Below are positions 521 to 48,126 of a stretch of 64,000 bases of DNA, in pieces. The stretch covers positions 103,168,001 through 103,232,000 of the forward strand of contig OZ024744.1 in the NCBI GenBank assembly GCA_964016885.1, written 5' to 3'. Within the stretch, counting starts at the first letter, position 1. Every line of letters begins with the position of its first letter. A program made the position numbers and the translations under genes. Origin of the DNA: Eledone cirrhosa (lineage: Eukaryota). A model generated the notes under the pieces. The model was not told the DNA's origin and did no database searches. It saw nothing but the letters and a program-made list of their open reading frames with translations.

Positions 521-577
521 TGTTTTCAATTCTTGGTGGTTTGGTTGCCACTTGATCTCTGCCTGTAAACCATCCAC
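521..577 (-). CDS. 57-nt phase-1 symmetric micro-exon, repeat copy 1: (S)GWFTGRDQVATKPPRIEN
   Basis: Minus strand reads TATTTTCTTTATTTAG|GTGGATGG...GAAAACA|GTAAGT. Length is divisible by 3. Phase is taken from the upstream exons. Confidence 0.72.
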
Positions 578-635
578 CTAAATAAAGAAAATAATATCAA
601 ATCTACATATATAAACCTGTGATATTAACAGATAA

Positions 636-850
636 TGATGTGTGATGTCAGTGAAAGTTGGCTGCTATTTCTAGCATATTTAGTTACTAGGTAGGTCTAG
701 CATTGATTTCAAACAGAATTGGCTGCTATTTCTAGCATATTTAGTTACCAGATAGGTCTAGCATTGAGGTCTTCATATAGATTTTAGTATGAAACACATA
801 AGGAAGATGTTTGTGTTGTAGATCACTCTCCTTCAAATTACACATTACCA
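636..850. mobile_element. Old MITE-like element in each unit, with a 61-bp internal sub-repeat
   Basis: Left TIR TGTGAT..GAGAGTTGGCTGCTATTTCTAGC. The matching right TIR GCTAGAAATAGTAACTAAATCTCCTTCAAATTACACA is complete only in the long units (~30756-30792, ~48383-48420). A diverged copy lies at ~56236-56398. Confidence 0.55.
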
Positions 851-897
851 ACTTATGTATGTATGTATGTATGTATGTATGTATGTAGTTATGTATG

Positions 898-1312
898 TTC
901 TTTTGGTTTTATAATTTCACACATTTTTACCAATAGAGAGAGAGAGAGTCGGTTTCTAACATAGACACACGACTCTCATTGTAATTTACACAACATCAAC
1001 AAAGTAGATTATGTATGCATGGATGCATGTGTAGATATGGATGTTATTGTATGTGTGGATGTGGATGTTTTGAGTTGTATCTCTGCATATGTATATGCTT
1101 TGTATCTGTACATGTATATATGCAGTTATTAGAGGCAAACATTTTTGGAAGTTTTACATATTTTTACTGTTCCATTAATGGATTGTACTTGAAATTTCCT
1201 AACTAGTTGTGTTCTTTCTGTTCATGTGAAGCCCAGCTTCTCAAGATTTGTATTGAGGCAGTTACTAACATACCCCAGTGCCCCAATAATCACAGGCATA
1301 AATCTGAGTAGT
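898..1312 (-). mobile_element. R4/Dong-like non-LTR element, family B, 5'-truncated 3' end (every unit)
   Basis: FMPVIIGALGYVSNCLNTNLEKLGF...LQVQSINGTVKICKT aligns by eye with the C-terminus of the 26257-26931 ORF. Both ends abut (TATG)n. Confidence 0.75.
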
Positions 1313-1335
1313 TATGTATGTATGTATGTATGTAT

Positions 1336-1624
1336 GTGGGACTGGCTTTGTGCAGTGCCTTTTCCTCACTATAAAAGCTTCACGGCACAGCCATTGCTTT
1401 ATATCTGGAGATCTCTCTGCACTTGTCGTCACATGGTACCATGGGCCCAGCACTATGTGTCAGTAATTGTCACAAGTGTAGAGTTTGTACCAGAGCTTTC
1501 AAGTCGCTGGCTGGCTTAAAAAGTCACACTCGTTCAGCGCATCAGTAGGGGTTCTCCTACATGGATATAAAGTAGTGGCCTTACTCGAAAAACGAGTTGG
1601 CAGCCACGATGTATGTATGTATGT
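1336..1624 (+). mobile_element. 5'-truncated bipartite RTE-derived element (short units only)
   Basis: Start resembles the RTE 5'UTR at ~56721-56783, then CSICTRAFKSLAGLKSHTRSAHQ* zinc finger, the GCC.TACTCGAAAAACGAG..GCAGCCA 3' motif and a (TATG)n tail. Empty sites at ~31240-31257 and ~48861-48880. Confidence 0.75.
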
Positions 1625-1745
1625 CGGGTCACTCTTCAGTGTTACTTGTAACATGTAACCCAGTACAACCTGTCGCATTGTCGGGTTGTCGGTGACTAAA
1701 CCGGCAACCCCACCAAGTTTACTTGGTGAGGAGGGTGATTTTGGA

Positions 1746-2455
1746 TCCAGGTGACAAGGTTGTAAAGAAAAAGAAATTGTCATTTCTTGTGTAAGCCTTC
1801 ATCCTTTCAATCATGAGAACGTTTTACAAATTTTGAAGGTTTCAGATATCATGGCAATTTGTAGATCATGAATTTAGGAGCCATGTTCTTTCTCTATAAA
1901 TCCCAGTTCAGTTATACTTTGGTCCAGGTGGAATTGTATATAAACTGTAGCTCCAATTATTATATGGTTGAATTTGACCATGTATCTTGGATACAGACTA
2001 GTGTAAATGTCAACTGATTACCCTCTTCTTTGTACAGCAAGTACTTGGTAGAGATTTCTTTTTCCTGGATTACATGGAGATATCCTTTAAGGTGAGAGGT
2101 TATGAACCTGTTGGAACTGCATGTCAGGCTTTTGGTATTGTTTATGCCCTCTATGGTCTGTGCTTTTCATCTCAAGTATCCATGTACAATTTCTAAGTAA
2201 AGTGGTCTATTATTTAATTTGTTTTGAGTATTGAGTAGAGTTTTCTGGTTGAGATGGTTGCTGACCATTTACTTCTGTTGAATATGTTGCTTCGTGTTAC
2301 GATCCGGGTCTCTTAAGATGTTAATATGGATTTTAGGTCCATAAAACTCTCCATGTGTGAGAAATATTGCCCATCCACATCACCATTGATGTGAAAATTT
2401 CCATTAACACTAAGCAACTTGTAAGTCCATACATCAATCTCCTTTAGTTCTTTGT
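1746..2455 (-). mobile_element. Degenerate, internally deleted R4/Dong-like element, family A (every full unit)
   Basis: Minus-strand translation gives KELKEIDVW..NGNFHINGDVD.., FITSHLKGYLHVIQEKEISTKYLL, YPRY..IIIGATVYI..LDQSITELGF..FKICKTF with stops. Homologous to 26257-26931. Confidence 0.85.
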
Positions 2456-3058
2456 ACGATGGATATTGTCCTATACACATGTCATATGTAGTGGGATTTG
2501 ACTAGGTACTGAATAGGAGAACAGGCATGAATGTATTTACTGCAATGAAAGAAGCTACTAAGCTGTGATAGTGGAGGAAGGCATGAATGAAGTTGAGAGA
2601 TATAGTGAAGGCATTGATATCTACTAAGTGGACAGATTGATATATGTACATCTTTCTACCTGTCAGTCTATCTCATCATCATCATGGCTTGACATTGCAA
2701 ATGAAGATTATGAAGCAGGTGGTCCACGTTGACTCTGAGATCACTCATGGTTGTACAGACAAATGTGGGACAGGCAGGCACAGCTATAGCGGCTACATCT
2801 ATATATCTTCTCAGGGTTTGATAAATTGGTATTGAGGTTTCCCCTTGTGTCTTTTGTCCTTAAGGGTGGCCCTGTGTGTTTTTTAAAGGTGGAGAAAGCA
2901 TGGTTGATGGGTGGGATTCCATTTGTCATGGTTCTTAGCTAGGGTGGACCACTGACGATGGTCCATGTGATTCTATATATATATGTGTGATGGTGTAATA
3001 ATAAAAGATAGGTTCTTCAATGTAACTTAATAAAAGAAGGTTCTTGAATGTAACTTAC

Positions 3059-3115
3059 TGTTTTCAATTCTTGGTGGTTTGGTTGCCACTTGATCTCTGC
3101 CTGTAAACCATCCAC
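3059..3115 (-). CDS. 57-nt micro-exon, repeat copy 2
   Basis: Identical to copy 1, AG/GTAAGT intact. Confidence 0.72.
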
Positions 3116-5574
3116 CTAAATAAAGAAAATAATATCAAATCTACATATATAAACCTATGATATTAACAGATAATGATGTGTGATGTCAGGGAGAGTTGGC
3201 TGCTATTTCTAGCATATTTAGTTACTAGGTAGGTCTAGCATTGATTTCAAAGAGAATTGACTGCTATTTCTAGCATATTTAGTTACCTCATAGGTCTAGC
3301 ATTGAGGTCTTCATATAGATTTTAGTATGAAACACATAAGGAAGATGTTTGTGTTGTAGATCACTCTCCTTCAAATTACACATTACCAACTTATGTATGT
3401 ATGTATGTATGTATGTATGTATGTATGTTCTTTTGGTTTTATAATTTCACACATTTTTACCAATAGAGAGAGAGTCGGTTTCTAACATAGACACACGACT
3501 CTCATTGTAATTTAACAACATCAACAAAGTAGATTATGTATGCATGCATGCATGTGTAGATTTGGATGTTATTGTATGTGTGGATGTGGATGTTTTGAGT
3601 TGTATGTCTGCATATGTATATGCTTTGTATCTGTACATGTGTATATGCAGTTATTAGACGCAAAATGTTTGGAAGTTTTACATATTTTTACTGTTCCATT
3701 AATGGATTGTACTTGTAATTTCCTAACTAGTTGTGTTCTTTCTGTTCCTGTGAAGCCCAGCTTCTCAAGATTTGTATTGAGGCAGTTACTAACATACTCC
3801 TGTGCCCCAATAATAACAGGCATAAATCTGAGTAGTTATGTATGTATGTATGTATGTGGGACTGGCTTTGTGCAGTGCCTTTTCCTCACTATAAAAGCTT
3901 CACGGCACAGGCATTGCTTTATATCTGGAGATCTCTCTGCACTTGTCATCACATGGTACCATGGGCCCAGCACTATGAGTCAATAATTGTCACAAGTGTA
4001 GTATTTGTACCAGAGCTTTCAAGTCGCTGGCTGGACTAAAAAGTCACACTCGTTCAGCGCATCAGTAGGGGTTCTCCTACATGGATATAAAGTAGTGGCC
4101 GTACTCGAAAAACGAGTTGGCAGCTACCATGTATGTATGTCGGGTCACTCTTCAGTGTTACTTGTAACATGTAACCCAGTACAACCTGTCGCATTATCGG
4201 ATTGTCGGTGACTAAACCAGCAACCCCTCCCAGTTTACTTGGTGAGGAGGGTGATTTTGGATCCGGGTGACAAGGTTGTAAAGAAAAAGAAATTGTCATT
4301 TCTTGTGTAAGCCTTCATCCTTTCAATCATGAGAATGTTTTATAAATTTTGAAGGTTTCAGATATCATGGCTATTTGTAGATCATGAATTTAGGAGCCAT
4401 GTTCTTTCTCCATAAATCCCAGTTCAATTATACTCTGGTCCAGGTGGAATTGTATATAAACTGTAGCTCCAATTATTATATGGTTGAATTTGACCATGTA
4501 TCTTGGATACAGACTAGTAAATGTCAACAGATTACCCTCTTTTTTATACAGTAAGTACTTGGTAGAGATTTCTTTTTCCTGGATTACATGGAGATATCCT
4601 TTAAGGTGAGATGTTATGAACCTGTTGGAACTGCATGTCAGGCTTTTGGTATTGTTTATGCCCTCTATGGTCTGTGCTTTTCATCTCAAGTATCTATGTA
4701 CAATTTCTTAGTAAAGTGCTATATTATTTAATTTGTTTTGAGTATTGAGTAGAGTTTTCTGGTTGAGATGGCTGCTGACCATTTACTTCTGTTGAAGATG
4801 TTGCTTCATGTTACTATCCGAGTCTCTTATGATGTTAATATGGATTTTAGGTCCACAAAACTCTCCATGAGTGAGAAATATTGCCTATCCACATCACCAT
4901 TGATGTGAAAATTTCCATTAACACTGAGCAACTTGTAAGTCCATACATCCATCTCCTCCAGTTCTTTGTACTATGTATATTGTCCTATACACATGTCATA
5001 CGTAGTGGGATTTGACTAGGTACTGAATAGGAGTACAGGCATGAATGTGTGTACTGCAATGAAAGAAGCTACTAAGCTGTGATAGTGGAGGAAGGCATGA
5101 ATGAAGTTGAGAGATATAGTGAAGGCATTGATATCTACTAAGTGGACAGATTGATATATGTACATCTTTCTACCTGTCAGTCTATCTATCTCATCATCAT
5201 CATGGCTTGACATTGCAAATGAAGATTATGAAGCAGGTGGTCCACGTTGACTCTGAGATCACTCATGGTTGTACAGACAAATGTGGGACAGGCAGGCACA
5301 GCTACAGTGGCTACATCTATATATCTTCTCAGGGTTTGATAAATTGGTATTGAGGTTTCCCCTTGTGTCTTTTGTCCTTAAGGGTGGCCCTGTGGGTTTT
5401 TTAAAGGTGGAGAAAGCATGGTTGATGGGTGGGATTCCATTTGTCATGGTTCTTAGCTAGGGTGGACCACTGACGATGTTCCATGTGATTCTATATATAT
5501 ATGTGATGGTGTAATAATATAAGATAGGTTCTTCAATGTAACTTAATAAAAGAAGGTTCTTGAATGTAACTTAC

Positions 5575-5631
5575 TGTTTTCAATTCTTGGTGCTTTGGTT
5601 GCCACTTGATCTCTGCCTGTAAACCATCCAC
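5575..5631 (-). CDS. 57-nt micro-exon, repeat copy 3 (KAP variant)
   Basis: Splice sites intact; CCA>GCA. Confidence 0.72.
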
Positions 5632-8098
5632 CTAAATAAAGAAAATAATATCAAATCTACTTATATAAACCTATGATATTAACAGATAATGATGTGAGAT
5701 GTCAGTGAAAGTTGGCTGCTATTTCTAGCATATTTAGTTACTAGGTAGGTCTAGCATTGAATTCAAGGAGAATTGGCTGCTATTTCTAGCATATTTAGTT
5801 ACCTCATAGGTCTAGCATTGAGGTCTTCATATATATTTTAGTATGAAACACATAAGGAAGATGTTTGTGTTGTAGATCACTATCCTTCAAATTACACATT
5901 ACCAACTTATGTATGTATATATGTATGTATGTATGTATGTATGTTCTTTTGGTTTTATAATTTCACACATTTTTACCAATAGAGAGAGAGTCGGTTTCTA
6001 ACATAGACACACGACTCTCATTGTAATTAAACAACATCAACAAAGTAGATTATGTATGCATGCATTCATGTGTAGATATGGATGTTATTGTATGTGTGGA
6101 TGTGGATGTTTTGAGTTGTATGTCTGCATATGTATATGCTTTGTATCTGTACATGTGTATATGCAGTTATTAGACGCAACATTTTTGGAAGTTTTACATA
6201 TTTTTACTGTTCCATTAATGGATTGTACTTGTAATTTCCTAACTAGTTGTGTTCTTTCTGTTCCTGTGAAGCCCAGATTCTCAAGATTTGTATTGAAGCA
6301 GTTACTAACATACTCATGTACCCCAATAATAACAGGCATAAATCTGAGTAGTTATGTATGTATGTATGTATGTGGGACTGGCTTTGTGCAGTGCCTTTTC
6401 CTCACTATAAAAGCTTCACGGCACAGGCATTGCTTTATATCTGGAGATCTCTCTGCACTTGTCACCACATGGTACCATGGGCCCAGCACTATGAGTCAAT
6501 AATTGACACAAGTGTAGTATTTGTACCAGAGCTTTCAAATCGCTGGCTGGACTAAAGAGTCACACTCGTTCAGCGCATCAGTAGGGGTTCTCCTACATGG
6601 ATATAAAGTAGTGGCCGTACTCGAAAAACGAGTTGGCAGCCACCATGTATGTATGTATGACGGGTCACTCTTCAGTGTTACTTGTAACATGTAACCCAGT
6701 ACAACCTGTCACATTGTCGGATTGTCGGTGACTAAACCGGCAACCCCACCAAGTTTATTTGGTGAGGAGGGTGATTTTGGATCCAGGTGACAAGGTTGTA
6801 AAGAAAAAGAAATTGTCATTTCTTGTGTAAGCCTTCATCCATTCAATCATGAGAACGTTTTACAAATTTTGAAGGTTTCAGATATCATGGCTATTTGTAG
6901 ATCATGAATTTAGGAGCTATGTTCTTTCTCCATAAATCCCAGTTCAGTTATACTTTGGTCCAGGTGGAATTGTATATAAACTGTAGCTCCAATTATTATA
7001 TGGTTGAATTCGACTATGTATCTTGGATACAGACTAGTGTAAATGTCAACTGATTACCCTCTTTTTTGTACAGTAAGTACTTGGTAGAGATTTCTTTTTC
7101 CTGGATTACATGGAGATATCCTTTAAGGTGAGATGTTATGAACCTGTTGGAACTCCATCTCAGGCTTTTGGTATTGTTTATGCCCTCTATGGTCTGTGCT
7201 TTTCATCTCAAGTATCCATGTACAATTTCTAAGTAAAGTGGTCTATTATTTAATTTGTTTTGAGTATTGAGTAGAGTTTTCTGGTTGAGATGGTTGCTGA
7301 CCATTTACTTCTGTTGAAGATGTTGCTTCGTGTTACTATCCGAGTCTCTTAAGATGTTAATATGGATTTTAGGTCCACAAAACCCTCCATGTGTGAGAAA
7401 TATTGCCCATCCACATCACCATTTATGTGAAAATTTCCATTAACACTGAGCAACTTGTAAGTCCATACATCAATCTCCTCTAGTTCTTTGTACTATGGAT
7501 ATTGTCATATACACATGTCATACGTAGTGGGATTTGACTAGGTACTGAATAGGAGTACAGGCATGAATGTATTTACTGCAATGAAAGAAGCTACTAAGCT
7601 GTGATAGTGGAGGAAGGCATGAATGAAGTTGAGAGATATAGTGAAGGCATTGATATCTACTAAGTGGACAGATTGATATATGTATATCTTTCTACCTGTC
7701 AGTCTATCTATCTCATCATCATCATGGCTTGACATTGCAAATGAAGATTATGAAGCAGGTGGTCCACGTTGACTCTGAGATCACTCATGGTTGTACAGAC
7801 AAATGTGGGACAGGCAGGCACAGCTACAGCGGCTACATCTATATATCTTCTCAGGGTTTGATAAATTGGTATTGAGGTTTCCCCTTGTGTCTTTTGTCCT
7901 TAAGGGTGGCCCTGTGGGTTGTTTAAAGATGGAGAAAGCATGGTTGATGGGTAGGATTCCATTTGTCATGGTTCTTAGCTAGGGTGGACCACTGACGATG
8001 GTCCATGTGATTCTATATATATATGTGTGATGGTGTAATAATAAAAGATAGGTTCTTCAATGTAACTTAATAAAAGAAGGTTCTTGAATGTAACTTAC

Positions 8099-8155
8099 TG
8101 TTTTCAATTCTTGGTGGTTTGGTTGCCACTTGATCTCTGCCTGTAAACCATCCAC
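8099..8155 (-). CDS. 57-nt micro-exon, repeat copy 4
   Basis: Consensus sequence, splice sites intact. Confidence 0.72.
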
Positions 8156-20762: not shown

Positions 20763-20819
20763 TGTTTTCAATTCTTGGTGGTTTGGTTGCCACTTGATCT
20801 CTGCCTGTAAACCATCCAC
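20763..20819 (-). CDS. 57-nt micro-exon, repeat copy 9
   Basis: Consensus sequence, splice sites intact. Confidence 0.72.
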
Positions 20820-26931: not shown

Positions 26932-29083
26932 GTATGTATGTATGTATATATGTATGTATGTATATATGTATGTATGTATGTAGTTATGTATGTTCTTTTG
27001 GTTTTATAATTTCACACATTTTTACCAATAGAGAGAGAGAGAGTCGGTTTCTAACATAAACACAAGACTCTCATTGTAATTTACACAACATCAACAAAGT
27101 AGATTATGTATGCATGCATTCATGTGTAGATATGAATGTTATTTTATGTGTGGATGTGTATGTTTTGAGTTGTATGTCTGCATATGTATATGCTTTGTAT
27201 CTGTACATGTGTATATGCAGTTATTAGATGCAAAATTTTTGGAAGTTTTACATATTTTTACTGTTCCATTAATGGATTGTACTTGTAATTTCCTAACTAG
27301 TTGTGTTCTTTCTGTTCCTGTGAAGCCCAGTTTCTCAAGATTTGTATTGAAGCAGTTACTAACATACCCCTGTGCCCCAATAATCACAGGCATAAATCTG
27401 AGTAGTTATGTACGTATGTATCTATTTATGTGGGACTGCCTTTGTGCAGTGCCTTTTCCTCACTATAAAAGCTTCACGGCACAGCCATTGCTTTATATCT
27501 GGAGATCTCTCTGCACTTGTCATCACATGGTACCACGGGTCCAGCACTATGTGTCAATAATTGTCACAAGTGTAGTGTTTGTACCAGAGCTTTCAAGTCG
27601 CTGGCTGGCTTAAAAAGTCACACTCGTTCAGCGCATCAGTAGGGGTTCTCCTACATGGATATAAAGTAGTGGCAGTACTCGAAAAACGAGTTGGCAGCCA
27701 CCATGTATGTATGTATGTATGTCGGGTCACTCTTCAGTGTTACTTGTAACATGTAACCCAGTACAACCTGTCGCATCGTCGGGTTGTCGGTGACTAAACC
27801 GGCAACCCCACCAAGTTTAACTGGTGAGGAGGGTGATTTTGGATCCAGGTGACAAGGTTGTAGAGAAAAAGAAATTGTCATTTCTTGTGTAAGCCTTCAT
27901 CCTTTCAATCATGAGAATGTTTTATAAATTTTGAAGGTTTCAGATATCATGGCCATTTGTAGATCATGAATTTAGGAGCTATGTTCTTTCTCCATAAATC
28001 CCAGTTCAGTTATACTTTGGTCCAGGTGGAATTGTATATAAACTGTAGCTCCAATTATTATATCGTTGAATTCGACCATGTATCTTGGATACAGACTAGT
28101 GTAAATGTCAACTGATTACCCTCTTTTTTGTACAGTAAGTACTTGGTAGAGATTTCTTTTTCCTGGATTACATGGAGATATCCTTTAAGGTGAGATGTTA
28201 TGAACCTGTTGGAACTCCATGTCAGGCTTTTGGTATTGTTTATGCCCTCTATGGTCTGTGCTTTTCATCTCAAGTATCCATGTACAATTTCTTAGTAAAG
28301 TGGTCTATTATTTAATTTGTTTTGAGTATTGAGTAGAGTTTTCTGGTTGAGATGGTTGCTGACCATTTTCTTCTGTTGAAGATGTTGCTTAGTGTTACTA
28401 TCCGAGTCTCTTAAGATGTTAATATGGATTTTAGGTCCACAAAACTCTCCATGAGTGAGAAATATTGCCCATCCACATCACCATTGATGTGAAAATTTCC
28501 ATTAACACTGAGCAACTTGTAAGTCCCTACATCAATCTCCTTTAGTTCTTTGTACTATGGATATTGTCCTATACACGTGTCATACGTAGTGGGATTTGAC
28601 TAGGTACTGAATAGGAGAACAGGCATGAATGTATTTACTGCAATGAAAGAAGCTACTAAGCTGTGATAGTGGAGGAAGGCATGAATGAAGTTGAGAGATA
28701 TAGTGACGGCATTGATATCTACTAAGTGGACAGATTGATATATGTACATCTTTCTACCTGTCAGTCTATCTATCTCATCATCATCATGGCTTGACATTGC
28801 AAATGAAGTTTATCTAGCAGGTGGTCCACGTTGACTCTGAGATCACTCATGGTTGTACAGACAAATGTGGGACAGGCAGGCACAGCTACAGTGGCTACAT
28901 CTATATATATCTTCTCAGGGTTTAATAAATTGGTATTGAGGTTTCCCATTGTGTCTTATGTCCTTAAGGGTGGCCCTGTGGGTTGTTTAAAGGTTGAGAA
29001 AGCATGGTTGATGGGTGGGATTCCATTTGTCATGGTTCTTAGCTAGGGTGGACCACTGACGATGGTCCATGTGATTCTATATA

Positions 29084-30362
29084 CAAGGGGGGATCAAAAA
29101 GTTCGCAGAATTTTATCGTAGCAAGAAAAAAAGCAGGTTAAAACAATATTAAACATCTCAGAACATTGTCACTGCTATTAGTCACTTGCAGTTAGTTATG
29201 CGCGGATTATTGTACCGTACTGACAGTCTTTACAAAACCTCTTTTTGGAACAATGGAAAATAGTTATTTTGAGATAAGATCCAATATCAAGTTTCTGGTG
29301 AAACTCAAATGGAAAGGGACACAGATTATGGAGGCTTTAGTTAAAGTTTACCGTACTACTACTCCAAAGAAAACTGCTGTCTACAAGTGGATTCAGTGAT
29401 TCAAACAAGGAGAGACGACCTTGAAGACGACCATCGCAGTGGAAGACCAGGAGCATAAAAAAATGACCAAAACGTTGAGGCTGCTCAGAAGAAGATCGAA
29501 GAATAACAGTTAATCAGTTAGCTAAGTCCCTAGACATTTCATATGGTTCGGCAAATTCAATTCTGCATGATAATTTGGGACTAAGCAAGCTTTCAGCGCG
29601 ATGGATCCCAAAAGTGTTGCGCCCTGATCAGCTGATTCTTCAAAGTGATCTGTCGATGGTGATAATAAACAAAATTGAAGTTGATGAAGAGCATTTCCTG
29701 ACCAAAATCATCACCGTAGATGAAACCTGGATCTACCTGAATCCAAACAGCAGTCAAAACAGGGGCTTCCATGTGGATCATCGGGGCCAATCAATTTCAA
29801 ATCTCAAAAGTCGAATCAAAAAGTGATGGCCACCATTTTCTGGGATTCAGATGGGGGAATACTAATAGATTATCTTGAAGGTCAAAGAACTGTGACAGGA
29901 GCTTACTATGCAAATGTTTTAAGGAAGCTGAAAGAGGCATTAGTCAAGAAACGAAAAGGGAAACTTCATGGTGGTTTCTTGTTTCACCATGACAATGCAC
30001 CAGCGCATTCTGCGCGGGTTGCAAAAGAAGTTGTTCGAGAATTTCGATGGGAAGTGCTTCCTCACCCGCCTTATAGTCCAGATTTAGCCCCATCAGACTT
30101 TTTCCTCTTTCCAAAACACAAAGAAATGCTAAAAGGAACCCGTTTTAGTGGTGTTGAAGAAGCTAAAACCACTGGCAACACATGGCTTCGAACAAGGCCT
30201 TCAACTTTCTTTAGAGACGGCTTACGAAGCTGGAAGCATAGCCTTGTGAAGTGTATTGACCTGGATGGCAACTATATAGAAAAATAAATTGAAGGTAAAT
30301 CATATATTTTGAAAAATAGATTATTTTCTGAAAAATTCCGCAAGCATTTTGATCCCCCCTCG
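29084..30362 (+). mobile_element. Mariner (DD34D) transposon, frameshifted transposase
   Basis: TA-flanked TIRs C(A/G)AGGGGGGATCAAAA / TTTTGATCCCCCCTCG. Motifs DETW, HHDNAPAH, YSPDLAPSDF. Confidence 0.95.
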
Positions 30363-30441
30363 TATATGTGTGATGGTGTAATAATAAAAGAAAGGTTCTT
30401 AAATGTAACTTAATAAAAGAATGTTCTTGAATGTAACTTAC

Positions 30442-30498
30442 TGTTTTCAATTCTTGGTGGTTTGGTTGTCACTTGATCTCTGCCTGTAAACCATCCAC
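30442..30498 (-). pseudogene. Micro-exon copy 12 with destroyed splice acceptor (AG>TG)
   Basis: + strand reads ATCCACCAAAATAAAG instead of ATCCACCTAAATAAAG. There is also a GCA>ACA change. Confidence 0.65.
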
Positions 30499-30649
30499 CA
30501 AAATAAAGAAAATAATATCAAATCTACATATATAAACCTATGATATTAACAGATAATGATGTGTGATTTCAGGGAGAGTTGGCTGCTATTTCTAGCATAT
30601 TTAGTTACCAGATAGGTCTAGCATTGACGTCTTCATATAGATTTTAGTA

Positions 30650-30714
30650 TCATCATCATCATCCTCGTTTAACGTTCACTTTCCATGCTAGCATGGGTTA
30701 GACGGAAACACATA
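30650..30714 (-). mobile_element. ~60-bp RTE 3'-tail fragment inserted in the MITE of long units (also ~48278-48342)
   Basis: Reverse complement CCGTCTAACCCATGCTAGCATGGAAAGTGAACGTTAAACGAGGATGATGAT matches the tail at 34496-34560. Confidence 0.7.
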
Positions 30715-31257
30715 TGAAACACATAAGGAAGATGTTTGTGTTGTAGATCACTCAGCTAGAAATAGTAACTAAATCTCCTTCAAATTACACATTACCAATT
30801 TAAGTATGTATGTATGTAGTTATGTATGTTCTTTTGGTTTATAATTTCACACATTTTTACCAATAGAAAGAGAGAGTCGGTTTCTGACATAGACACAAGA
30901 CTCTCATTGTAATTTACACAACATCAACTAGGTAGATATGTATGTATGCATGTGTAGATATGGATGTTATTGTATGTGTGGATGTGGATGTTTTGAGTTG
31001 TATGTCTGCATATGTATATGCTTTGTATCTGTACATGTGTATATGTAGATATTAGATGCAACATTTTTGGAAGTTTTACATATCTTTACTGTACCATTAA
31101 TGGATTGTACTTGTAATTTCCTAACTAGTTGTGTTCTTTCTGTTCCTGTGAAGCCCAGCTTCTCAAGATTTGTATTGAGGCAGCTACTAACATACCCCAG
31201 TGACCCAATAATCACAGGCATAAATCTGAGTAGTTTTGTATGTATGTATGTATGTCG

Positions 31258-31455
31258 GGTCACTCTTCAGTGTTACTTGTAACATGTAACCCAGTACAAC
31301 CTGTCGCATTGTCGGGTTGTCGGTGACTAAACCGGCAACCCCACCAAGTTTACTTGGTGAGGAGGGTGATTTTGGACACCCAGCAAGGACAAAAACAAAA
31401 CCTTGACAAAGGGCGGAATAACTCATAAAAGTCAACAGCCATCCTAAAATGTGTA
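31258..31455 (+). repeat. Unclassified SINE-like/interspersed element; complete in long units (also ~48881-49075), truncated in short units (e.g. 1625-1745)
   Basis: GC-richer block between microsatellites ending in GTCAACAGCCATCC plus a simple repeat. Family not recognised. Confidence 0.4.
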
Positions 31456-31527
31456 AATATGTATATGCATATATGCATGTGTATATATGTGTGTATGTAT
31501 ATGTATACATGTATATATATATATATG

Positions 31528-34500
31528 CTCACTACCTCCCAAATATCTGACAGTGACTATATAATTATTGCAGGCGACCTAAATGGTCATGTTGGGCAAC
31601 ATTGTGACGGCTACGACGAAATCCATGGAGGCTATGGGTTTGGTACTAGAAATGAGGAAGGCTCCAGAATCCTGGAATTCTGTGATGCAAATAACCTAAC
31701 TATCTGTAACACTAACTTCAAAAAACGTGACAATCACCTGATCACCTATAGATCTGGGGAACACACAAGCCAGGTAGATTATATCCTTACCAGAAGACGT
31801 GACAGAGTGTCTGTTGTAAACACTAAATCCCTCCCCCATGAAGAATGCACCTCCCAACATAGACTGATAATTAGCGACCTCATAGTCAGGACGAGACGTA
31901 CTCGACAGCAGAAGAGGACTATCCTCAGGAGAAAAATATGGAAGCTAAAGGACCCCACAGCCAAAAATAAATTTCAAAACATATTACTTGATGCTTTCGA
32001 CAGTAAGGAAGAACATTTAGAGTCGGACAATATTGAGGGACAGTGGGAATTTCTGAAAGCAAACCTGCTGTTGGCCACAGACGAAGTCTGTGGCTGGAGC
32101 AGGCCTGTAGGCAGGAGGAGAGTAACATGGTGGTGGAACAGTAAGGTGGAGGGGTCAATTAAGGCCAAAAAGCAGGCTTGGAAAGTATGGCGGGATGGGG
32201 GAAGTAGAGTAGACTATCAAGTGGCCAGGAGGGAAGCTAGGAGAGAAGTGTACTTAGCAAGAAGGGAAGCTGAGGAAAGAAAGTTCAAGCATGTCCTACA
32301 ACGCGATGACCAAAAACGTGAGGTGTTCAGGATTGCTAGGCAATGCGTCAAGGAAAACCGTGATATTGTCGGGGAGAAGTGTGTACTTAACGATGATGGC
32401 ATACTTGCCATCACCGACACTGATAAGAAGGTAGCTTGGAAGTGTCACTATGAAAGGCTACTAAATGAGGAGAATAAATGGGAGAAAGACAGTCTCCCCC
32501 ATGTCGACCCAATAGAGGGACCAGCAGTGTTAGTCGAGGGGAGTATAATAAGTAAGGCAATCAAGGATATGAAGACAGGTAAGGCGGCTGGGCCTTCGGA
32601 AATAGTTGCTGAGATGCTGAAGGCATCTGGCACGGTGGGACACACCATGGTCACCCGCATAGTTAACCAAGTCGTACAGAATGGGGTTGTTCCGAAGGAC
32701 TGGCATAGCAGCATCATCGTTAACTGTTATAAGGGTAAAGGAGACGCCCTAGATAGGAGTAACTATAGAGGCATTAAATTAATCGACCAGGTCATGAAGG
32801 TCACAGAAAAAGTAATAGCGCAACTAATCAGAGAGAGAATTGACCTAGATGAAATGCAGTTCGGGTTTGTGTCAGGCAAAAGTACCACAGACGCTCTTTT
32901 CATAGTACGACAACTACAGGAGAAGTACCTAGCTAAAGGTAAACCCCTCTACTTAGCTTTTGTCGACTTGGAGAAAGCCTTCGACAGAGTCCCCCGCTCC
33001 ATTATCTGGTGGGCTCTTAGAAAACTAGGCGTTGACGAATGGCTTGTGAGGGCTATACAAGCCATGTATAAAGAAACAGTCAGCAAGGTTAGAATTAACA
33101 ACGAATATAGTGAAGAGTTTAGCGTAAAAGTTGGCGTCCATCAGGGCTCTGTTCTCAGCCCCCTACTATTTATTATTGCCCTTCAGGCTATAACAGAGGA
33201 GTTCAAGACAGGCTGCCCATGGGAACTCCTATACGCAGACGACCTGACACTCATAGCGGAATCAATGGCCGAGCTAGAGAAGAAATTCCAAACATGGAAG
33301 CACGGCCTAGAGTCAAAAGGACTTAAAATTAACCTGGCTAAGACCAAAGTTCTAGTTTGTAGGAAAGAAAACAAGGCGGCGGTCCCTTCTGGGAAATGGT
33401 CGTGCTCGGTGTGTAGGAAAGGCGTAGGTAGAAACTCCATTTTGTGTCCTAAATGCAAAGTATGGGTGCATAAAAGATGTAGTGGGATCACAGGTAAGCT
33501 AACTAAGAACATAGATTTTACATGTGGCCGGTGTTCTGGTGCAATAAGTAGCAGCAAGTGCCCACAAAATACTAGCTCTTTCAATTGCGCAGAGGGTTCT
33601 ATAGAAATAGTGGACAGCTTCCGTTACCTGGGCGATAAAATCAGCAGTGGGGGAGGGTGCTCTGAAAGTACTGTAGCTAGAGTCAGAACTGGTTGGAAAA
33701 AGTTCAGAGAGCTTATACCACTATTAGCTGCTAAAGGGTTCTCCCTAAAAATGAAAGGCAGGTTGTACGATGCCTGCATACGAACAGCAATGTTGCATGG
33801 CAGTGAGACCTGGGCATTGTGTGCAGAGGATATACGCAGACTAGAGAGGAACGAAGCTTGCATGCTCCGCTGGATGTGTAACAGTAATATACGTGAACGG
33901 CAAAGCATAAACGAACTAAGGAAAAAATTAGAGATAAGAGGGATCAGATGTTGTTTACTCGAGAGAAGGCTACGTTGGTATGGACACGTGATGCGCATGA
34001 AAGTCGATAGCTGTATAACAAAGTGCAGGGCAATAAAGATAGACGGTAGCCACGGAATAGGCAGACCTAGAAAAACCTGGGACGAGCTGATAAACTCCGA
34101 CCTCACACACTTACACCTCTCCAAGACAATGTCACTGGACCGAGACCTTTGGCGGTACTCAGTAACAGAGAAGACCCGCCTTGCCAGTAGGCATCTCTAA
34201 CAAAATACACCCCGTCCCACCACCACCACCCCCACCCCATCCACACCACCCCGTCCTATGTAAAGTTATGTTGGTGCCGCGCCATCCGGGCCGAAACAAA
34301 TGAGATCGTGTAGGTGTCACGACAAAAAAACACACAGTCCACGCTGTAATGTGGCCGTGTAGGCAACACGGTAAAAACCTCCCAGACCCACACTGTAAAT
34401 GTGGTTGGTGTTAGGAAGGGCATCCAACTGTAGAAAACCTGCCAGACAGTCCTATGCGATCAAGACAATCACTCTTGCCTCAATTGGGACTACCCCCGTC

Positions 34501-34560: not shown

Positions 34561-34575
34561 CATATGTATATATAT

Positions 34576-36383: not shown

Positions 36384-39229
36384 CTAAATAAAGAAAATAA
36401 TATCAATTCTACTTATATAAACCTATGATATTAACAGATAATGATGTGTGATGTCAGTGAAAGTTGGCTGCTATTTCTAGCATATTTAGTTACCTCATAG
36501 GTCTAGCATTGAGGTCTTCATATAGATTTTAGTATGAAACACATAAGGAAGATGTTTGTGTTGTAGATCACTCTCCTTCAAATTACACATTACCAACTTA
36601 TGTATGTATGTATGTATGTATGTATGTATGTATGTATGTATGTATGTATGTATGTATGTATGTATGTATGTATGTATGTAGTTATGTATGTTCTTTAGGT
36701 TTTATAATTTCACACATTTTTACCAATAGAGAGAGAGAGTCGGTTTCTAACATAGACACAAGACTCTCATTGTAATTTAACAACATCAACAAAGTAGATT
36801 ATGTATGCATGCATGCATGTGTAGATATGGATGTTATTGTATGTGTGGATGTGGATGTTTTGAGTTGTATGTCTGCATATGTATATGCTTTGTATCTGTA
36901 CATGTGTATATGCAGTTATTAGATGCAAACATTTTTGGAAGTTTTACATATTTTTACTGTTCCATTAATGGATTGTACTTGTAATTTCCTAACTAGTTGT
37001 GTTCTTTCTGTTCCTGTGAAGCCCAGCTTCTCAAGATTTGTATTGAGGCAGCTACTAACATACTCCAGTGCCCCAATAATCACAGGCATAAATCTGAGTA
37101 GATATGTATCTATGTATGTATGTATGTGGGACTGGCTTTGTGCAGTGCCTTTTCCTCACTATAAAAGCTTCACGGCACAGCCATTGCTTTATATCTGGAG
37201 ATCTCTCTGTACTTGTCGTCACATGGTACCATGGGCCCAGCACTATGTGTCAATAATTGTCACAAGTGTAGTGTTTGTACCAGAGCTTTCAAGTCGCTGG
37301 CTGGCTTAAAAAGTCACACTCGTTCAGCGCATCAGTAGGGGTTCTCCTAGATGGATATAAAGTAGTGGCCGTACTCGAAAAACGAGTTGCAGCCACGATG
37401 TATGTACGTATGTCGGGTCACTCTTCAGTGTTACTTGTAACATGTAACCCAGTACAACCTGTCGTATCGTCGGGTTGTCGGTGACTAAACCGGCAACCCC
37501 ACCAAGTTTACTTGGTGAGAAGGGTGATTTTGGATCCAGGTGACAAGGTTGTAAAGAAAAAGAAATTGTCATTTCTTGTGTAAGCCTTCATCCTTTCAAT
37601 CATGAGAATGTTTTACAAAGACTCTCATTGTAATTTAACAACATCAACAAAGTAGATTATGTATGCATGCATGTGTAGATATGGATGTTATTGTATGTGT
37701 GGATGTGTATGTTTTGAGTTGTATGTGTGCATATGTATATGCTTTGTATCTGTACATGTGTATATACAGTTATTAGATGCAAATTTTTTGGAAGTTTTAC
37801 ATATTTTTACTGTTCCATTAATGGATTGTACTTGTAATTTCCTAACTAGTTGTGTTCTTTCTGTTCCTGTGAAGCCCAGTTTCTCAAGATTTGTATTGAG
37901 GCAGTTACTAACATACCCCAGTGACCCAATAATCACAGGCATAAATCTGAGTAGTTATGTATGTATGTGAAAATTTCCATTAACACTGAGCAACTTGTAA
38001 GTCCATACATCAATCTCCTCTAGTTCTTTGTACTATGGATATTTTCCTATACACATGTCATACGTAGTGGGATTTGACTAGGTACTGAATAGGAGAACGG
38101 GCATTGATTTCAAGGAGAATTGGCTGCTATTTCTAGCATATTTAGTTACCAGATAAGTCTAGCATTGAGGTCTTCATATAGATTTTAGTATGAAACACAT
38201 AAGGAAGATGTTTGTGTTGTAGATCACTCTCCTTCAAATTACACATTACCAACTTATGTATGTATGTATGTATGTATGTATGTATGTATGTATGTATGTA
38301 TGTATGTATGTATGTATGTATGTAGTTATGTATGTTCTTTAGGTTTTATATTTTTCACACATTTTTACTAATAGAGAGAGAGAGTCGGTTTCTAACATAG
38401 ACACAACACTCTCATTGTAATTTATACAACATCAACAAAGTAGATTATGTATGCATGGATGCATGTGTAGATATGGATGTTATTGTATGTGTCGGTGTGG
38501 ATGTTTTGAGTTGTATGTCTGCATATGTATATGCTTTGTATCTGTACATGTGTATATGCAGTTATTAGATGCAAACATTTTTGGAAGTTTTACATATTTT
38601 TACTGTTCCATTAATGGATTGTACTATGGGTATTGTCCTATACACATGTCATACGTAGTGGGATTTGACTAGGTACTGAATAGGAGTACAGGCATGAATG
38701 TATTTACTGCAATGAAAGAAGCTACTAAGCTGTGATAGTGGAGGAAGGCATGAATGAAGTTGAGAGATATAGTGAAGGCATTGATATCTACTAAGTGGAC
38801 AGATTGATATATGTACATCTTTCTACCTGTCAGTCTATCTATCTCATCATCATCATGGCTTGACATTGCAAATGAAGATTATGAAGCAGGTGGTCCACGT
38901 TGACTCTGAGATCACTCATGGTTGTACAGACAAATGTGGGACAGGCAGGCACAGCTATAGCGGCTACATCTATATATCTTCTCAGGGTTTGATAAATTGG
39001 TATTGAGGTTTCCCCTTGTGTCTTTTGTCCTTAAGGGTGGCCCTGTGGGTTTTTTAAAGGTGGAGAAAGCATGGTTGATGGGTGGGATTCCATTTGTCAT
39101 GGTTCTTAGCTAGGGTGGACCACTGACGATGGTCCATGTGATTCTATATATATATGTGTGATGGTGTAATAATAAAAGATAGGTTCTTCAATGTAACTTA
39201 ATAAAAGAAGGTTCTTGAATGTAACTTAC

Positions 39230-39509: not shown

Positions 39510-39543
<34 letters not shown>

Positions 39544-41708: not shown

Positions 41709-41765
41709 TGTTTTCAATTCTTGGTGGTTTGGTTGCCACTTGATCTCTGCCTGTAAACCATCCAC
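41709..41765 (-). CDS. 57-nt micro-exon, repeat copy 15
   Basis: Consensus sequence, splice sites intact. Confidence 0.72.
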
Positions 41766-44312
41766 CTAAATAAAGAAAATAATATCAATTCTACTTATAT
41801 AAACCTGTGATATTAACAGATAATGATGTGTGATGTCAGTGAAAGTTGGCTGCTATTTCTAGCATATTTAGTTACTAGGTATGTCTAGCATTGATTTCAA
41901 AGAGAATTGACTGCTATTTCTAGCATATTTAGTTACCTCATAGGTCTAGCATTGAGGTCTTCATATAGATTTTAGTATGAAACACATAAGGAAGATGTTT
42001 GTGTTGTAGATCACTCTCCTTCAAATTACACATTACCAACTTATGTATGTATGTATGTATGTATGTATGTATGTATGTATGTATGTATGTATGTATGTAT
42101 GTATGTATGTATGTATGTATGTATGTATGTATGTATGTAGTTATGTAGTTATGTATGTTCATTTGGTTTTATAATTTCACACATTTTTACCAATAGAGAG
42201 AGAGAGTCGGTTTCTAACATAAACACACGACTCTCATTGTAATTTAACAACATCAACAAAGTAGATTATGTATGCATGCATGCATGTGTAGATATGGATG
42301 TTATTGTATGTGTGGATGTGGATGTTTTGAGTTGTATGTCTGCATATGTATATGCTTTGTATCTGTACATGTGTATATGCAGTTATTAGACGCAAAATGT
42401 TTGGAAGTTTTACATATTTTTACTGTTCCATTAATGGATTGTACTTGTAATTTCCTAACTAGTTGTGTTCTTTCTGTTCCTGTGAAGCCCAGCTTCTCAA
42501 GATTTGTATTGAGGCAGTTACTAACATACTCCTGTGCCCCAATAATAACAGGCATAAATCTGAGTAGTTATGTATGTATGTATGTATGTGGGACTGGCTT
42601 TGTGCAATGCCTTTTCCTCACTATAAAAGCTTCACGGCACAGGCATTGCTTTATATCTGGAGATCTCTCTGCACTTGTCATCACATGGTACCACGGGCCC
42701 AGCACTATGAGTCAATAATTGTCACAAGTGTAGTATTTGTACCAGAGCTTTCAAGTCGCTGGCTGGACTAAAAAGTCACACTCGTTCAGCGCATCAGTAG
42801 GGGTTCTCCTACATGGATATAAAGTAGTGGCCGTACTCGAAAAACGAGTTGGCAGCTACCATGTATGTATGTCGGGTCACTCTTCAGTGTTACTTGTAAC
42901 ATGTAACCCAGTACAACCTGTCGCATTATCGGATTGTCGGTGACTAAACCAGCAACCCCTCCCAGTTTACTTGGTGAGGAGGGTGATTTTGGATCCGGGT
43001 GACAAGGTTGTAAAGAAAAAGAAATTGTCATTACTTGTGTAAGCCTTCATCCTTTCAATCATGAGAATGTTTTATAAATTTTGAAGGTTTCAGATATCAT
43101 GGCTATTTGTAGATCATGAATTTAGGAGCTGTGTTCTTTCTCCATAAATCCCAGTTCAATTATACTTTGGTCCAGGTGGAATTGTATATAAACTGTAGTT
43201 CCAATTATTATATGGTTGAATTTGACCATGTATCTTGGATACAGACTAGTGTAAATGTCAACTGATTACCCTCTTCTTTGTACAGTAAGTACTTGGTAGA
43301 GATTTCTTTTTCCTGGATTACATGGAGATATCCTTTAAGGTGAGAGGTTATGAACCTGTTGGAACTCCATGTCAGGCTTTTGGTATTGTTTCTGCCCTCT
43401 ATGGTCTGTGCTTTTCATCTCAAGTATCCATGTACAATTTCTAAGTAAAGTGGTCTATTATTTAATTTGTTTTGAGTATTGAGTAGAGTTTTCTGGTTGA
43501 GATGGTTGCTGACCATTTACTTTTGTTGAAGATGTTGCTTCGTGTTACTATCCGAGTCTCTTAAGATGTTAATATGGATTTTAGATCCACAAAACTCTCC
43601 ATGAGTGAGAAATATTGCCTATCCACATCACCATTCATGTGAAAATTTCCATTAACACTGAGCAACTTGTAAGTCCATACATCAATCTCCTCTAGTTCTT
43701 TGTACTATGGATATTGTCATATACACATGTCATACGTAGTGGGATTTGACTAGGTACTGAATAGGAGTACAGGCATGAATGTATTTACTGCAATGAAAGA
43801 AGCTACTAAGCTGTGATAGTGGAGGAAGGCATGAATGAAGTTGAGAGATATAGTGAAGGTATTGATATCTACTAAGTGGACAGATTGATATATGTACATC
43901 TTTCTACCTGTCAGTCTATCTATCTCATCATCATCATGGCTTGACATTGCAAATGAAGATTATGAAGCAGGTGGTCCACGCTGACTCTGAGATCACTCAT
44001 GGTTGTACAGACAAATGTGGGACAGGCAGGCACAGCTACAGCGGGTACATCTATATATATCTTCTCAGCGTTTGATAAATTGGTATTGAGGTTTTCCCTT
44101 GTGTCTTTTGTCCTTAAGGGTGGCCCAGTGGGTTTTTTAAAGGTGGAGAAAGCATGGTTGATGGGTAGGATTCCATTTGTCATGGTTCTTAGCTAGGGTG
44201 GACAACTGACGATGGTCCATGTGATTCTATATATATATGTGTGATGGTGTAATAATAAAAGATAGGTTCTTCAATGTAACTTAATAAAAGAAGGTTCTTG
44301 AATGTAACTTAC

Positions 44313-44369
44313 TGTTTTCAATTCTTGGTGGTTTGGTTGCCACTTGATCTCTGCCTGTAAACCATCCAC
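44313..44369 (-). CDS. 57-nt micro-exon, repeat copy 16
   Basis: Consensus sequence, splice sites intact. Confidence 0.72.
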
Positions 44370-46702
44370 CTAAATAAAGAAAATAATATCAAATCTACAT
44401 ATATAAACCTATGATGTTAACAGATAATGATGTGTGATGTCAGTGAAAGTTGGCTGCTATTTCTAGCATATTTAGTTACCTCATAGGTCTAGCATTGAGG
44501 TCTTCATATAGATTTTAGTATGAAACACATAAGGAAGATGTTTGTGTTGTAGATCACTCTCCTTCAAATTACACATTACCAACTTATGTATGTATGTATG
44601 TATATATGTATGTATGTATGTATGTATGTAGTTATGTATGTTCTTTTGGTTTTATAATTTTACACATTTTTACCAATAGAGAGAGAGTCGGTTTCTAACA
44701 TAGACACAAGACTCTCATTGTAATTTAACAACATCAACAAAGTAGATAATGTATGCATGCATGCATGTGTAGATATGGATGTTATTGTATGTGTGGATGT
44801 GGATGTTTTGAGTTGTATGTCTGCATGTGTATATGCTTTGTATCTGTACATGTGTATATGCAGTTACTAGACGCAAAATTTTTGGAAGTTTTACATATTT
44901 TTACTGTTCCATTAATGGATTGTACTTGTAATTTCCTAACTAGTTGTGTTCTTCCTGTTGCTGTGAAGCCCAGCTTCTCAAGATTTGTATTGAGGCAGTT
45001 ACTAACATACTCCTGTGCCCCAATAATAACAGGCATAAATCTGAGTAGTTATGTATGTATGTATGTGGGACTGGCTTTGTGCAGTGCCTTTTCCTCACTA
45101 TAAAAGCTTCACGGCACAGGCATTGCTTTATAGCTGGAGATCTCTCTGCACTTGTCATCACATGGTACCATGGGCCCTATGAGTCAATAATTGTCACAAG
45201 TGTAGTATTTGTACCAGAGCTTTCAAGTCGCTGGCTGGACTAAAAAGTCACACTCGTTCAGCGCATCGGTAGGGGTTCTCCTACATGGATATAAAGTAGT
45301 GGCCGTACTCGAAAAACGAGTTGGCAGCTACCATGTATGTATGTCGGGTCACTCTTCAGTGTTACTTGTAACATGTAACCCAGTACAACCTGTCGCGTTG
45401 TCGGATTGTCGGTGACTAAACCAGCAACCCCTCCAAGTTTACTTGGTGAGGAGGGTGATTTTGGATCTGGGTGACAAGGTTGTAAAGAAAAAGAAATTGT
45501 CATTTCTTGTGTAAGCCTTCATCATTTCAATCATGAGAATGTTTTACAAAATTTGAAGGTTTCAGATATCATGGATATTTCTAGATCATGAATTTAGGAG
45601 CTGTGTTCTTTCTCCATAAATCCCAGTTCAGTTATACTTTCGTCCAGGTGGAATTGTATATAAACTGTAGCTCCAATTATTATATGGTTGAATTCGACCA
45701 TGTATCTTGGATACAGACTAGTGTAAATGTCAACTGACTACCCTCTTTTTAGTACAGTAACTACTTGGTAAAGATTTCTTTTTCCTGGATTACATGGAGA
45801 TATCCTTTAAGGTGAGATGTTATGAATCTGTTGGAACTCCATGTCAGGCTTTTGGTATTGTTTATGCCCTCTATGGTCTGTGCTTTTCATCTCAAGTATC
45901 CATGTACAATTTCTTACTAAAGTGGTCTATTATTTAATTTGTTTTGAGTATTGAGTAGAGTTTTCTGGTTGAGATGGTTGCTGACCATTTTCTTCTGTTG
46001 AAGATGTTGCTTCGTGTTACGATCCGGGTCTCTTAAGATGTTGATATGGATTTTAGGTCCACAAAACTCTCCATGTGTGAGAAATATTGCCCATCCACAT
46101 CACCATTGATGTGAAAATTTCCATTAACACTGAGCAACTTGTAAGTCCATACATCAATCTCCTCTAGTTCTTTGTACTATGGATATTGTCCTATACACAT
46201 GTCATACGTAGTGGGATTTGACTAGGTACTGAATAGGAGTACAGGCATGAATGTATTTACTGCAATGAAAGAAGCTACTAAGCTGTGATAGTGGAGGAAG
46301 GCATGAATGAAGTTGAGAGATATAGTGAAGGCATTGATATCTACTAAGTGGACAGTTGATATATGTACATCTTTCTACCTGTCAGTCTATCTATCTCATC
46401 ATCATCATGGCTTGACATTGCAAATGAAGATTATGAAGCAGGTGGTCCACGTTGACTCTGAGATCACTCATGGTTGTACAGACAAATGTGGGACAGGCAG
46501 GCACAGCTATAGCGGCTACATCTATATATCTTCTCAGGGTTTGATAAATTGGTATTGAGGTTTCCCCTTGTGTCTTTTGTCCTTAAGGGTGGCCCTGTGG
46601 GTTTTTTAAAGGTGAGGAAAGCATGGTTGATGGGTGGGATTCCATTTGTCATGGTTCTTAGCTAGGGTGGACCACTGACGATGGTCCATGTGATTCTATA
46701 TA

Positions 46703-47990
46703 CGAGGGGGGATCAAAAAGTTTGTGGAATTTTATCGTAGCAAGAAAAAAAGCAGGTTAAAACAATATTAAACATCTCAGAACATTGTCACTGCTATTAG
46801 TCACCTGCAGTTAGTTATGCGCGGACTATTGTACAGTACTGACAGTCTTTACAAAACCTCTTTTTGGAACAATGGAAAATAGTTATTTTGAGATAAGATC
46901 CATATCAAGTTTCTGGTGAAACTCAAATGGAAAGGGACACAGATTATGGAGGCTTTAGTTAAAGTTTACGGTACTACTACTCCAAAGAAAACTGCTGTCT
47001 ACAAGTGGATTCAGCGATTCAAACAAGGGAGAAACGACCTTGAAGACGACCTTCGCAGTGGAAGACCAGGAACATCAAAAAATGACCAAAATGTTGAGGC
47101 TGCTCAGACTTTAATTGAAGAAGAACGAAGAATAACAGTTAATCAGTTAGCTAAAACCCTAGACATTTCATATGGTTTGGCAAATTCAATTCTGCACGAT
47201 AATTTAGAACTAAGCAAGCTTTCAACGCGATGGTTCCCAAAGTGTTGCGCCCTGATCAGCTGATTCTTCGAAGTGATCTGTCTTTGGTGATATTAAACAA
47301 AATTGAAGTTGATGAAGAGCATTTCCTGTCCAGAATCATCACCGGAGATGAAACCTGGATCTACCTGAATCCAAACAGCATTCAAAACAGTGGTTTTCAT
47401 GTGGATCATCGTGGGCCAATCAATTTCAAATCTCAAAAGTCAGATCAAAAAGTGATGGCCACCATTTTCTGGGATTCAGATGGGGGGATACTAATAGATT
47501 ATCTTGAAGGTCAAAGAACTGTGACAGGAGCTTACTATGCAAATGTTTTGAGGAAGCTGAAAGAGGCATTAGTCAAGAAACGAAAAGGGAAACTTCATGG
47601 TGGGATCTTGTTTCACCATGACAATGCACCAGCGCATTCTGCGTGGGTTGCAAAAGAAGTTCTTCGAGAATTTCGATGGGAAGTGCTTCCTCACCAGCCT
47701 TATAGTCCAGATTTAGCCCCATCAGACTTTCTCCTCTTTCCAAAACTCAAAGAAATGCTAAAAGGAACCCGTTTTAGTGGTGTTGAAGAAGCTAAAAACA
47801 CTGCCAACACATGGCTTCGAACAAGGTCTTCAACTTTCTTTAGAGACGGCTTACGAAGCTAGAAGCATAGCCTTGTGAAGTGTATTGACCTGGATGGCAA
47901 CTATGTAGAAAAATAAATTGAAGGTAAATCATATTTTTTGAAAAATAGATTATTTTCTGAAAAATTCCGCGAATTTGTTATCCCCCCTCG
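46703..47990 (+). mobile_element. Mariner (DD34D) transposon, second copy at the homologous TA site
   Basis: Same TIRs and flanks as 29084-30362. ITGDETW, HHDNAPAH, YSPDLAPSDF, with frameshifts and a stop. Confidence 0.95.
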
Positions 47991-48069
47991 TATATGTGTG
48001 ATGGTGTAATAATAAAAGAAAGGTTCTTAAATGTAACTTAATAAAAGAATGTTCTTGAATGTAACTTAC

Positions 48070-48126
48070 TGTTTTCAATTCTTGGTGGTTTGGTTGCCAC
48101 TTGATCTCTGCTTTTAAACCATCCAC
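48070..48126 (-). CDS. 57-nt micro-exon, repeat copy 17 (first in transcript order): (C)GWFKSRDQVATKPPRIEN
   Basis: Splice sites intact; two substitutions change TG to KS. Confidence 0.72.

Follow-up and report, generated by a model that had tools for sequence, protein, structure and literature searches.

The closest described counterparts of the locus treated here are the micro-exon genes (MEGs) of schistosomes. As set out in the available parts of two accounts (PMC4350168, PMC10526429), MEGs carry most of their coding sequence in 10–20 very short exons of 6–81 nucleotides (nt), mostly of a length divisible by three (3n), within long introns rich in transposable elements (TEs). The same sources describe high ratios of non-synonymous to synonymous change (dN/dS), expansion in gene number, a signal peptide in all members and a distribution restricted to flatworms. 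The present locus belongs to an octopus-type animal, whose genome was searched over 3.0 Gb; the window analysed is the stretch OZ024744.1:103168001-103232000, 64,000 nt in length. Its minus strand holds a macrosatellite of 17 units, each containing one 57-nt segment (the 57-mer) bounded by splice-site motifs. We read the 57-mer, with a probability of about 0.6, as one module, recently amplified, in a cluster of 39 that are related but divergent. The modules are likely to be in-frame exons, open to skipping, in a small family of micro-exon genes. That there is an exon family is well supported at the level of the DNA.

The module family resembles MEGs in that the bulk of its predicted coding sequence lies in very short symmetric exons (3n in 28 of 31 scored modules and open in phase 1 in 27), and in a raised non-synonymous rate, the proportions of non-synonymous (pN) and synonymous (pS) differences being 0.39 and 0.21 in six sister pairs (p = 0.02). 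It differs in its first exon, which is acidic and lacks a hydrophobic core, whereas MEGs all have a signal peptide; in the length of its exons (mode 42 nt, against 15 nt in MEGs), which are accompanied by homologous intron flanks; and in its host, which is no flatworm, with no sequence similarity found (the first-exon peptide is without a match). The family appears to work like a schistosome MEG, yet by signal peptide, lineage and homology it stands outside that group. The analogy with MEGs, which an initial annotation of the window had already drawn, is apt, and its support comes from 38 sister modules that lie outside the array.

Other systems share single aspects of the design. According to the portion of the source available, the BgTEP2 gene of the snail Biomphalaria has 12 tandem bait exons (PMC7016707). 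Bait clusters of the TEP/A2M/CD109 type, so far as the accessible text goes, are like the module family in setting tandem short exons of varied length and composition between constant exons; they differ in that OZ024744.1 is without alpha-2-macroglobulin (A2M) or thioester matches and in that the constant parts of the module family amount to only 45 + 27 codons. The tripwires of NLRP1/CARD8, in the part of the account consulted (PMC10249858), are comparable in their positively selected peptide stretch, which in the module family is predicted to be cytosolic and disordered. This is an analogy of function only; no FIIND, CARD or other effector domain was found in the module family when both constant exons were compared with Pfam. 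The array itself invites comparison with NBPF/Olduvai, whose repeat units we take to carry coding exons. As in the available portion of the NBPF/Olduvai account (PMC10475015), the genomic repeat units are kilobase-sized; the present array differs in having one predicted 19-codon exon per unit, placed among divergent sister exons. No description of such arrays in a cephalopod was found in the literature covered, most subscription papers lying outside that coverage; the accessible part of a bioRxiv preprint (10.64898/2026.09.05.749416) has neural microexons as its subject.

Sister modules outside the array

When the array exon was searched together with its flanks, the genome returned 19 matches, all of them on OZ024744.1 and consisting of the 17 array copies and two flank-only matches 400 kb off (match counts from genome searches are lower bounds throughout). 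One flank-only match presents the intron context of the array around a different 57-nt core. The 57-mer is low-copy and very likely, as had been supposed, no dispersed TE fragment. Profiles built from the intron flanks of the array exons then served for the module search, which yielded 38 non-array modules on OZ024744.1 between 102.70 and 103.96 Mb, each with a different core of 15–69 nt. The window's strand has 17 of them, spread from 103.487 down to 103.136 Mb; the plus strand has another 17, at 103.600–103.761 Mb, and the remaining four fall in a scrambled region near 102.74–102.79 Mb. The total includes two modules inside the window (42 and 54 nt; Table 1) and one of 42 nt that is 4.4 kb left of it; none was found at 102.60–102.70 Mb. 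The flank pattern has 29 matches in the genome, 24 of which fall on OZ024744.1 within 1 Mb.

The modules have the structure expected of symmetric exons. Under a fixed acceptor rule, a donor is present in 37 of the 38 listed modules and an acceptor in 31; among these 31, 28 cores are 3n, and the open cores number 27 for phase 1, 14 for phase 0 and 7 for phase 2. With homologous acceptors set by hand, a count that leaves out eight modules without a homologous AG, 30 of 31 are 3n, and 29, 12 and 5 are open in phases 1, 0 and 2, respectively. Five of the eight omitted modules have an inner YAG that gives cores of 15, 24, 27, 39 and 39 nt. The core lengths, taken from a hand-typed list, form 15 classes of 18–69 nt, of which 14 are 3n (binomial p ~2e-6 if the classes were independent). 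On the window's strand, 14 of the 17 non-array modules are intact. The core peptides are rich in Ser, Leu, Ile, Lys, Thr and Pro, with Cys at 1.1%. On the evidence of these 38 divergent sisters, the 57-mer is very likely to be the symmetric phase-1 micro-exon that the initial annotation took it for.

Comparison of sister modules provides the evidence on selection. Of 16 pairs, 15 are more similar in each flank than in the core. The most telling pair matches at 105 of 110 flank positions but at only 25 of 42 core positions, where the differences are 15.5 non-synonymous and 0.5 synonymous. When six disjoint sister pairs are pooled, pN stands at 76.3/198 = 0.39 and pS at 12.7/60 = 0.21 (Fisher p = 0.02), an excess that points to positive selection on the cores. 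Because flanks are shared, lengths are 3n, the open phase is common and pN exceeds pS, the 57-mer is likely to be a cassette exon in a micro-exon gene family that is under diversifying selection.

Some modules are unusual in their splice sites or setting. Those at 103476067, 103471605 and 103463573 (minus strand) have GC-AG or weak GTAATT donors, yet are 3n with an open frame, and three intact modules sit in an 11-kb island within a 60-bp satellite.

The 17-unit array

A recount confirmed the 17 minus-strand copies of the 57-mer, the first at 48126-48070 and the last at 577-521. The donor GTAAGT is present in 17 of 17 copies and the TTTAG acceptor in 16, so that 16 have both splice sites, and there are no indels and no phase-1 stops. 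Units are 95–97% alike. Of the 16 spacings between array exons, 12 measure 2467–2604 nt; the four longer ones (2903, 3757, 4607 and 5885 nt) occur where mariner/LINE insertions and partial units sit. It had been thought that more copies would follow past the left edge of the window. The left-most unit, however, ends about 85 nt outside that edge and no additional copy turned up in the genome search, so that the array is complete. In three runs, all made up of contigs from a single sample and extending over introns, contigs are sparse on the exon, at a depth of 31–83 against 10^3–10^5 on adjacent TE pieces, a comparison that is qualitative. The TE nature of the unit is read from this high depth and from a 74–77% likeness to a LINE fragment; the six open reading frames (ORFs) of one unit have no match in Pfam.

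Within the 57-mer, a second in-frame AG sits 15 nt from the outer one and would give a 42-nt exon. In alignments with sister modules, their acceptors fall at the inner AG, and 42 nt is the commonest length in the family. A matrix built from 30 family acceptors, with a family score range of 1.0–18.7, gives 10.1 for the outer AG and 1.1 for the inner; the present exon is therefore likelier to be 57 nt long, and 42 nt as the working array exon is disfavoured. The 57-nt length would then probably have arisen from a 42-nt ancestor by an in-frame 15-nt shift of the acceptor.

Taken by itself the array says little about coding. Phase 0 is likewise open in 16 of the 17 copies, so that the array alone cannot fix the phase, and the absence of indels and stops does not exceed chance expectation; the copies are simply young. 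Selection within the array is not supported: variable columns number 5 of 57 in the exon and 11 of 119 in the 60-nt flanks, and when the introns of 13 units are divided into 1643 windows of exon length (57 nt), 141 of these match the exon in conservation. Neither the window test nor the column comparison shows an exon–flank difference. A Fisher test of exon against intron (p = 0.0009) was rejected, the intron count being inflated by misaligned end columns.

Gene ends and homologue searches

The clearest gene ends belong to the plus-strand paralogue, in which a 45-codon ATG exon, whose phase-1 donor carries the family flank, stands upstream of the 17 modules, and a phase-1 exon downstream reaches a stop after 27 codons. 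In the genome the first exon has three matches and the last-exon peptide two, all on OZ024744.1 at 102.73–103.76 Mb; comparison at the DNA level brings the last exons to three, the third being degenerate. The ATG exon encodes an acidic peptide that contains an amphipathic stretch but no hydrophobic core, and a scan for hydrophobic first exons passed it over; a scan of the region for signal-peptide exons gave no credible match, although an upstream exon that escaped it is possible.

Homologue searches with these constant parts gave nothing significant. A protein search with the 45-residue first exon, covering longer proteins only, produced 13 candidates and none with E<=10; the same peptide had no match in 1.84 billion representatives and no usable match in the Atlas. 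Pfam recognised no family in either constant exon (0 of 2 proteins). In the PDB, the first-exon peptide matched only the ZNHIT3 C-terminus (5l85_A) at a non-significant E of 1.1, and the stop exon had no match. A conceivable likeness to BID, with its helix, protease loop and BH3, received no support from the Pfam or PDB searches, and the stop exon is without the Gly-Asp of BH3.

Recent inverted duplications are present in the region. Two first-exon copies, one of them at 102775436-102775570, are 99% identical, lie in opposite orientation and are 780 kb apart; the pair possibly represents a recent inversion-duplication or a haplotype duplication in the assembly. Among the contigs only the first-exon variant of 102.775 Mb appears; the near-identical pair might therefore be allelic, or this part of the assembly may contain errors. 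A last-exon variant at 102738862-102738952 (minus strand) carries an insertion of 26 nt together with a possible donor, and encodes basic and then hydrophobic residues resembling the start of a membrane anchor; no convincing next exon was found for it. The first modules of the head-to-head sets share an inverted downstream stretch of 420 nt at 98% identity (103486839-103487258 / 103600854-103601273), which may be just a young repeat.

Proposed origin and function

The family could have arisen by repeated duplication of an intron-exon-intron block, in which the symmetric phase would keep the reading frame through each duplication and the duplicated modules would diversify under positive selection. 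Exon skipping is predicted to produce many variable, disordered peptide strings between the fixed short first and last exons. The macrosatellite would be the newest duplication round, in which one exon was multiplied 17-fold with 2.4 kb of TE-filled intron, too recently to have diversified. The chief effect of the extra copies might be that variable splicing includes one peptide more often, or in greater number, in the transcript.

As to function, we tentatively suggest a library of intracellular baits or decoys that serves in an arms race, offering for example cleavage sites to pathogen proteases. The suggestion is based on the lack of a signal peptide, the few cysteines and the unrelated linear peptides, and on analogy with the bait exons of snail TEP2 (PMC7016707) and the tripwire of CARD8 (PMC10249858), as far as these are described in the parts available. 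The fullest version is unlikely, though worth stating: that an octopus-type animal expresses a signal-less, MEG-like family as a combinatorial bait-peptide library, and that its macrosatellite is exon birth caught in the act, with 17 fresh cassettes spliced in variable numbers and awaiting diversification. A design described as a flatworm speciality would then occur in a free-living animal, as an orphan family in repeat-masked DNA, and would point to protein diversity, selected in an arms race, that annotation has missed. Duplications of every age occur at the locus, the youngest units being 97% identical and the most distant sisters barely alignable; exon birth and diversification are therefore directly testable, although the window's own satellite is possibly a dead branch.

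Alternative explanations

Several results weigh against the reading of the 57-mer as a live, skippable cassette. Divergence in the flanks (0.07) is lower than pS (0.21; p = 0.0005), so that conservation of the flanks, conversion or homogenisation, or the flank-based search itself inflates the core–flank contrast. The modules are related and their counts therefore not independent, which makes the binomial value of 2e-6 only a guide. Of the six distinct changes seen among the array exons, five are non-synonymous, and the exon changes at the rate of its flanks, a neutral pattern. The last three modules on the window's strand are broken (one of 46 nt, one with a lost AG and one with a stop), and in the plus-strand paralogue six modules are without a homologous AG and one has a stop. 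None of the three first-exon matches in the genome lies upstream of the window's paralogue on its strand, no last exon was detected for that paralogue by peptide or DNA searches, and its last intron enters a satellite of 48-bp units of about 340 kb. Nor was an effector domain of the kind required by a tripwire found, no genome search having been aimed at FIIND or CARD.

Many of these points would be accounted for if the family were real and selected, while inversions and the expansion of satellites had deprived the window's copy of its first and last exons, leaving the array as later, neutral DNA with a pseudo-exon. This account, which shares the origin proposed above and departs from it only on present activity, is a serious contender, though with a chance short of even. 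Its strength lies in the undetected gene ends, the three broken 3' modules, the neutral array and the neighbouring paralogues, which are scrambled or stop-bearing. It has to reckon, however, with the 14 of 17 non-array modules that remain intact, with young sisters (flanks 92–100% alike) in which pN is far above pS, with an acceptor of family strength kept in 16 of 17 array copies, and with the possibility that a divergent first exon could escape the search. That the window's paralogue is still expressed is close to an even call and slightly on the doubtful side.

The initial annotation had gone further and envisaged a gene made mainly of the 57-nt repeat, all copies being spliced into a long homopolymeric protein, with 304 residues encoded in the window, whose length would be set by the satellite copy number. 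Symmetric phase and 16 of 17 intact copies are in keeping with this, and the NBPF/Olduvai units, of about 1.6 kb in the portion of the source available, offer a precedent. The array is, however, a single cassette in amplified form, accompanied on its strand by 17 other, different cassettes; there is no purifying selection among its copies, and all other members of the family diversify and do not homogenise. The model is consequently improbable, and the significance of the array is unlikely to lie in a 17-fold repeat protein.

Still less probable is a view of the modules as mutually exclusive exons of a larger known protein, either a TEP/alpha-2-macroglobulin bait region or a neprilysin-like cytoplasmic tail. 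The layout recalls the 12 tandem bait exons of BgTEP2 in the accessible part of its description (PMC7016707), and one last-exon variant ends in basic and hydrophobic residues with a possible donor. Among the best candidates in the genome, however, matches on OZ024744.1 number 0 of 7 for A2M (PF00207), 0 of 28 for the thioester domain (TED; PF07678) and 0 of 21 for Peptidase_M13 (PF01431), so that TEP/A2M and M13 are ruled out as host genes at the sensitivity of these searches; the long ORFs, among those listed, look TE-derived, and no convincing downstream exon was seen. A non-coding artefact, in which a small repetitive element, hypermutable in its core, has splice-like ends by chance, would fit a pS above flank divergence and the lack of homologues found, but is very improbable given 3n lengths in 14 of 15 classes, one open phase common to the modules, a pN that exceeds pS, the agreement of this phase with that of both an ATG exon and a stop exon, and flank-motif family matches confined to one megabase.

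Features of the window

The features located in the window are collected in Table 1.

Table 1. Micro-exon modules, flanks and repeats in the window (positions counted from its first letter).
Feature	Position	Strand	Remarks
Tandem array, 17 units of ~2.5 kb, each a micro-exon module with TE-derived intron	521..48126	-	Mean pairwise divergence 2.9% (13 full units)
Array exon starts, 57 nt each	48126, 44369, 41765, 39286, 36383, 30498, 25891, 23373, 20819, 18352, 15756, 13244, 10711, 8155, 5631, 3115, 577	-	
Representative 57-nt micro-exon, phase 1-1, predicted xGWFTGRDQVATKPPRIENx	20763..20819	-	Inner 42 nt follow second, likely ancestral AG
First copy in transcription order	48070..48126	-	Outer acceptor intact; inner AG context altered; 2 amino-acid changes
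Copy without outer AG (reads TTTTG), inner in-frame AG kept (42 nt, weak acceptor)	30442..30498	-	
54-nt phase-1 micro-exon, different member, predicted xVPLKLSSYVLLPPISEKx	52827..52880	-	
42-nt phase-1 micro-exon, different member, predicted xGTKYVSDRPVTLWx	56077..56118	-	
Upstream intron flank of ~280 nt, homologous to that of every array exon and of one module subfamily	56119..56402	-	
Orphan upstream flank without exon (rearranged unit)	38101..38252	-	
Mariner (Mos1-type) transposon, first intron of array	46700..48000	+	Duplicated at ~29083-30440 in larger block
Long interspersed nuclear element (LINE) insertion (endonuclease, reverse transcriptase, PHD) breaking one unit	31429..34197	+	
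Start of 200-kb 60-bp satellite, between the window's module group and the next same-strand modules	62345..64000	.	

Within the array, a 2.6-kb block containing the mariner element and the first copy of the array exon occurs twice, at 28904-31528 and 46523-49144 of the window, the two being 96% alike. A near-complete Tc1-type transposon with terminal inverted repeats lies at 54030-55440 of the window, between the 42-nt and the 54-nt exons. Two giant satellites are found in or beside the minus-strand module set, one at 102.798–103.136 Mb (unit of about 48 bp, 340 kb) and the other at 103.230–103.434 Mb (60-bp unit, 200 kb).

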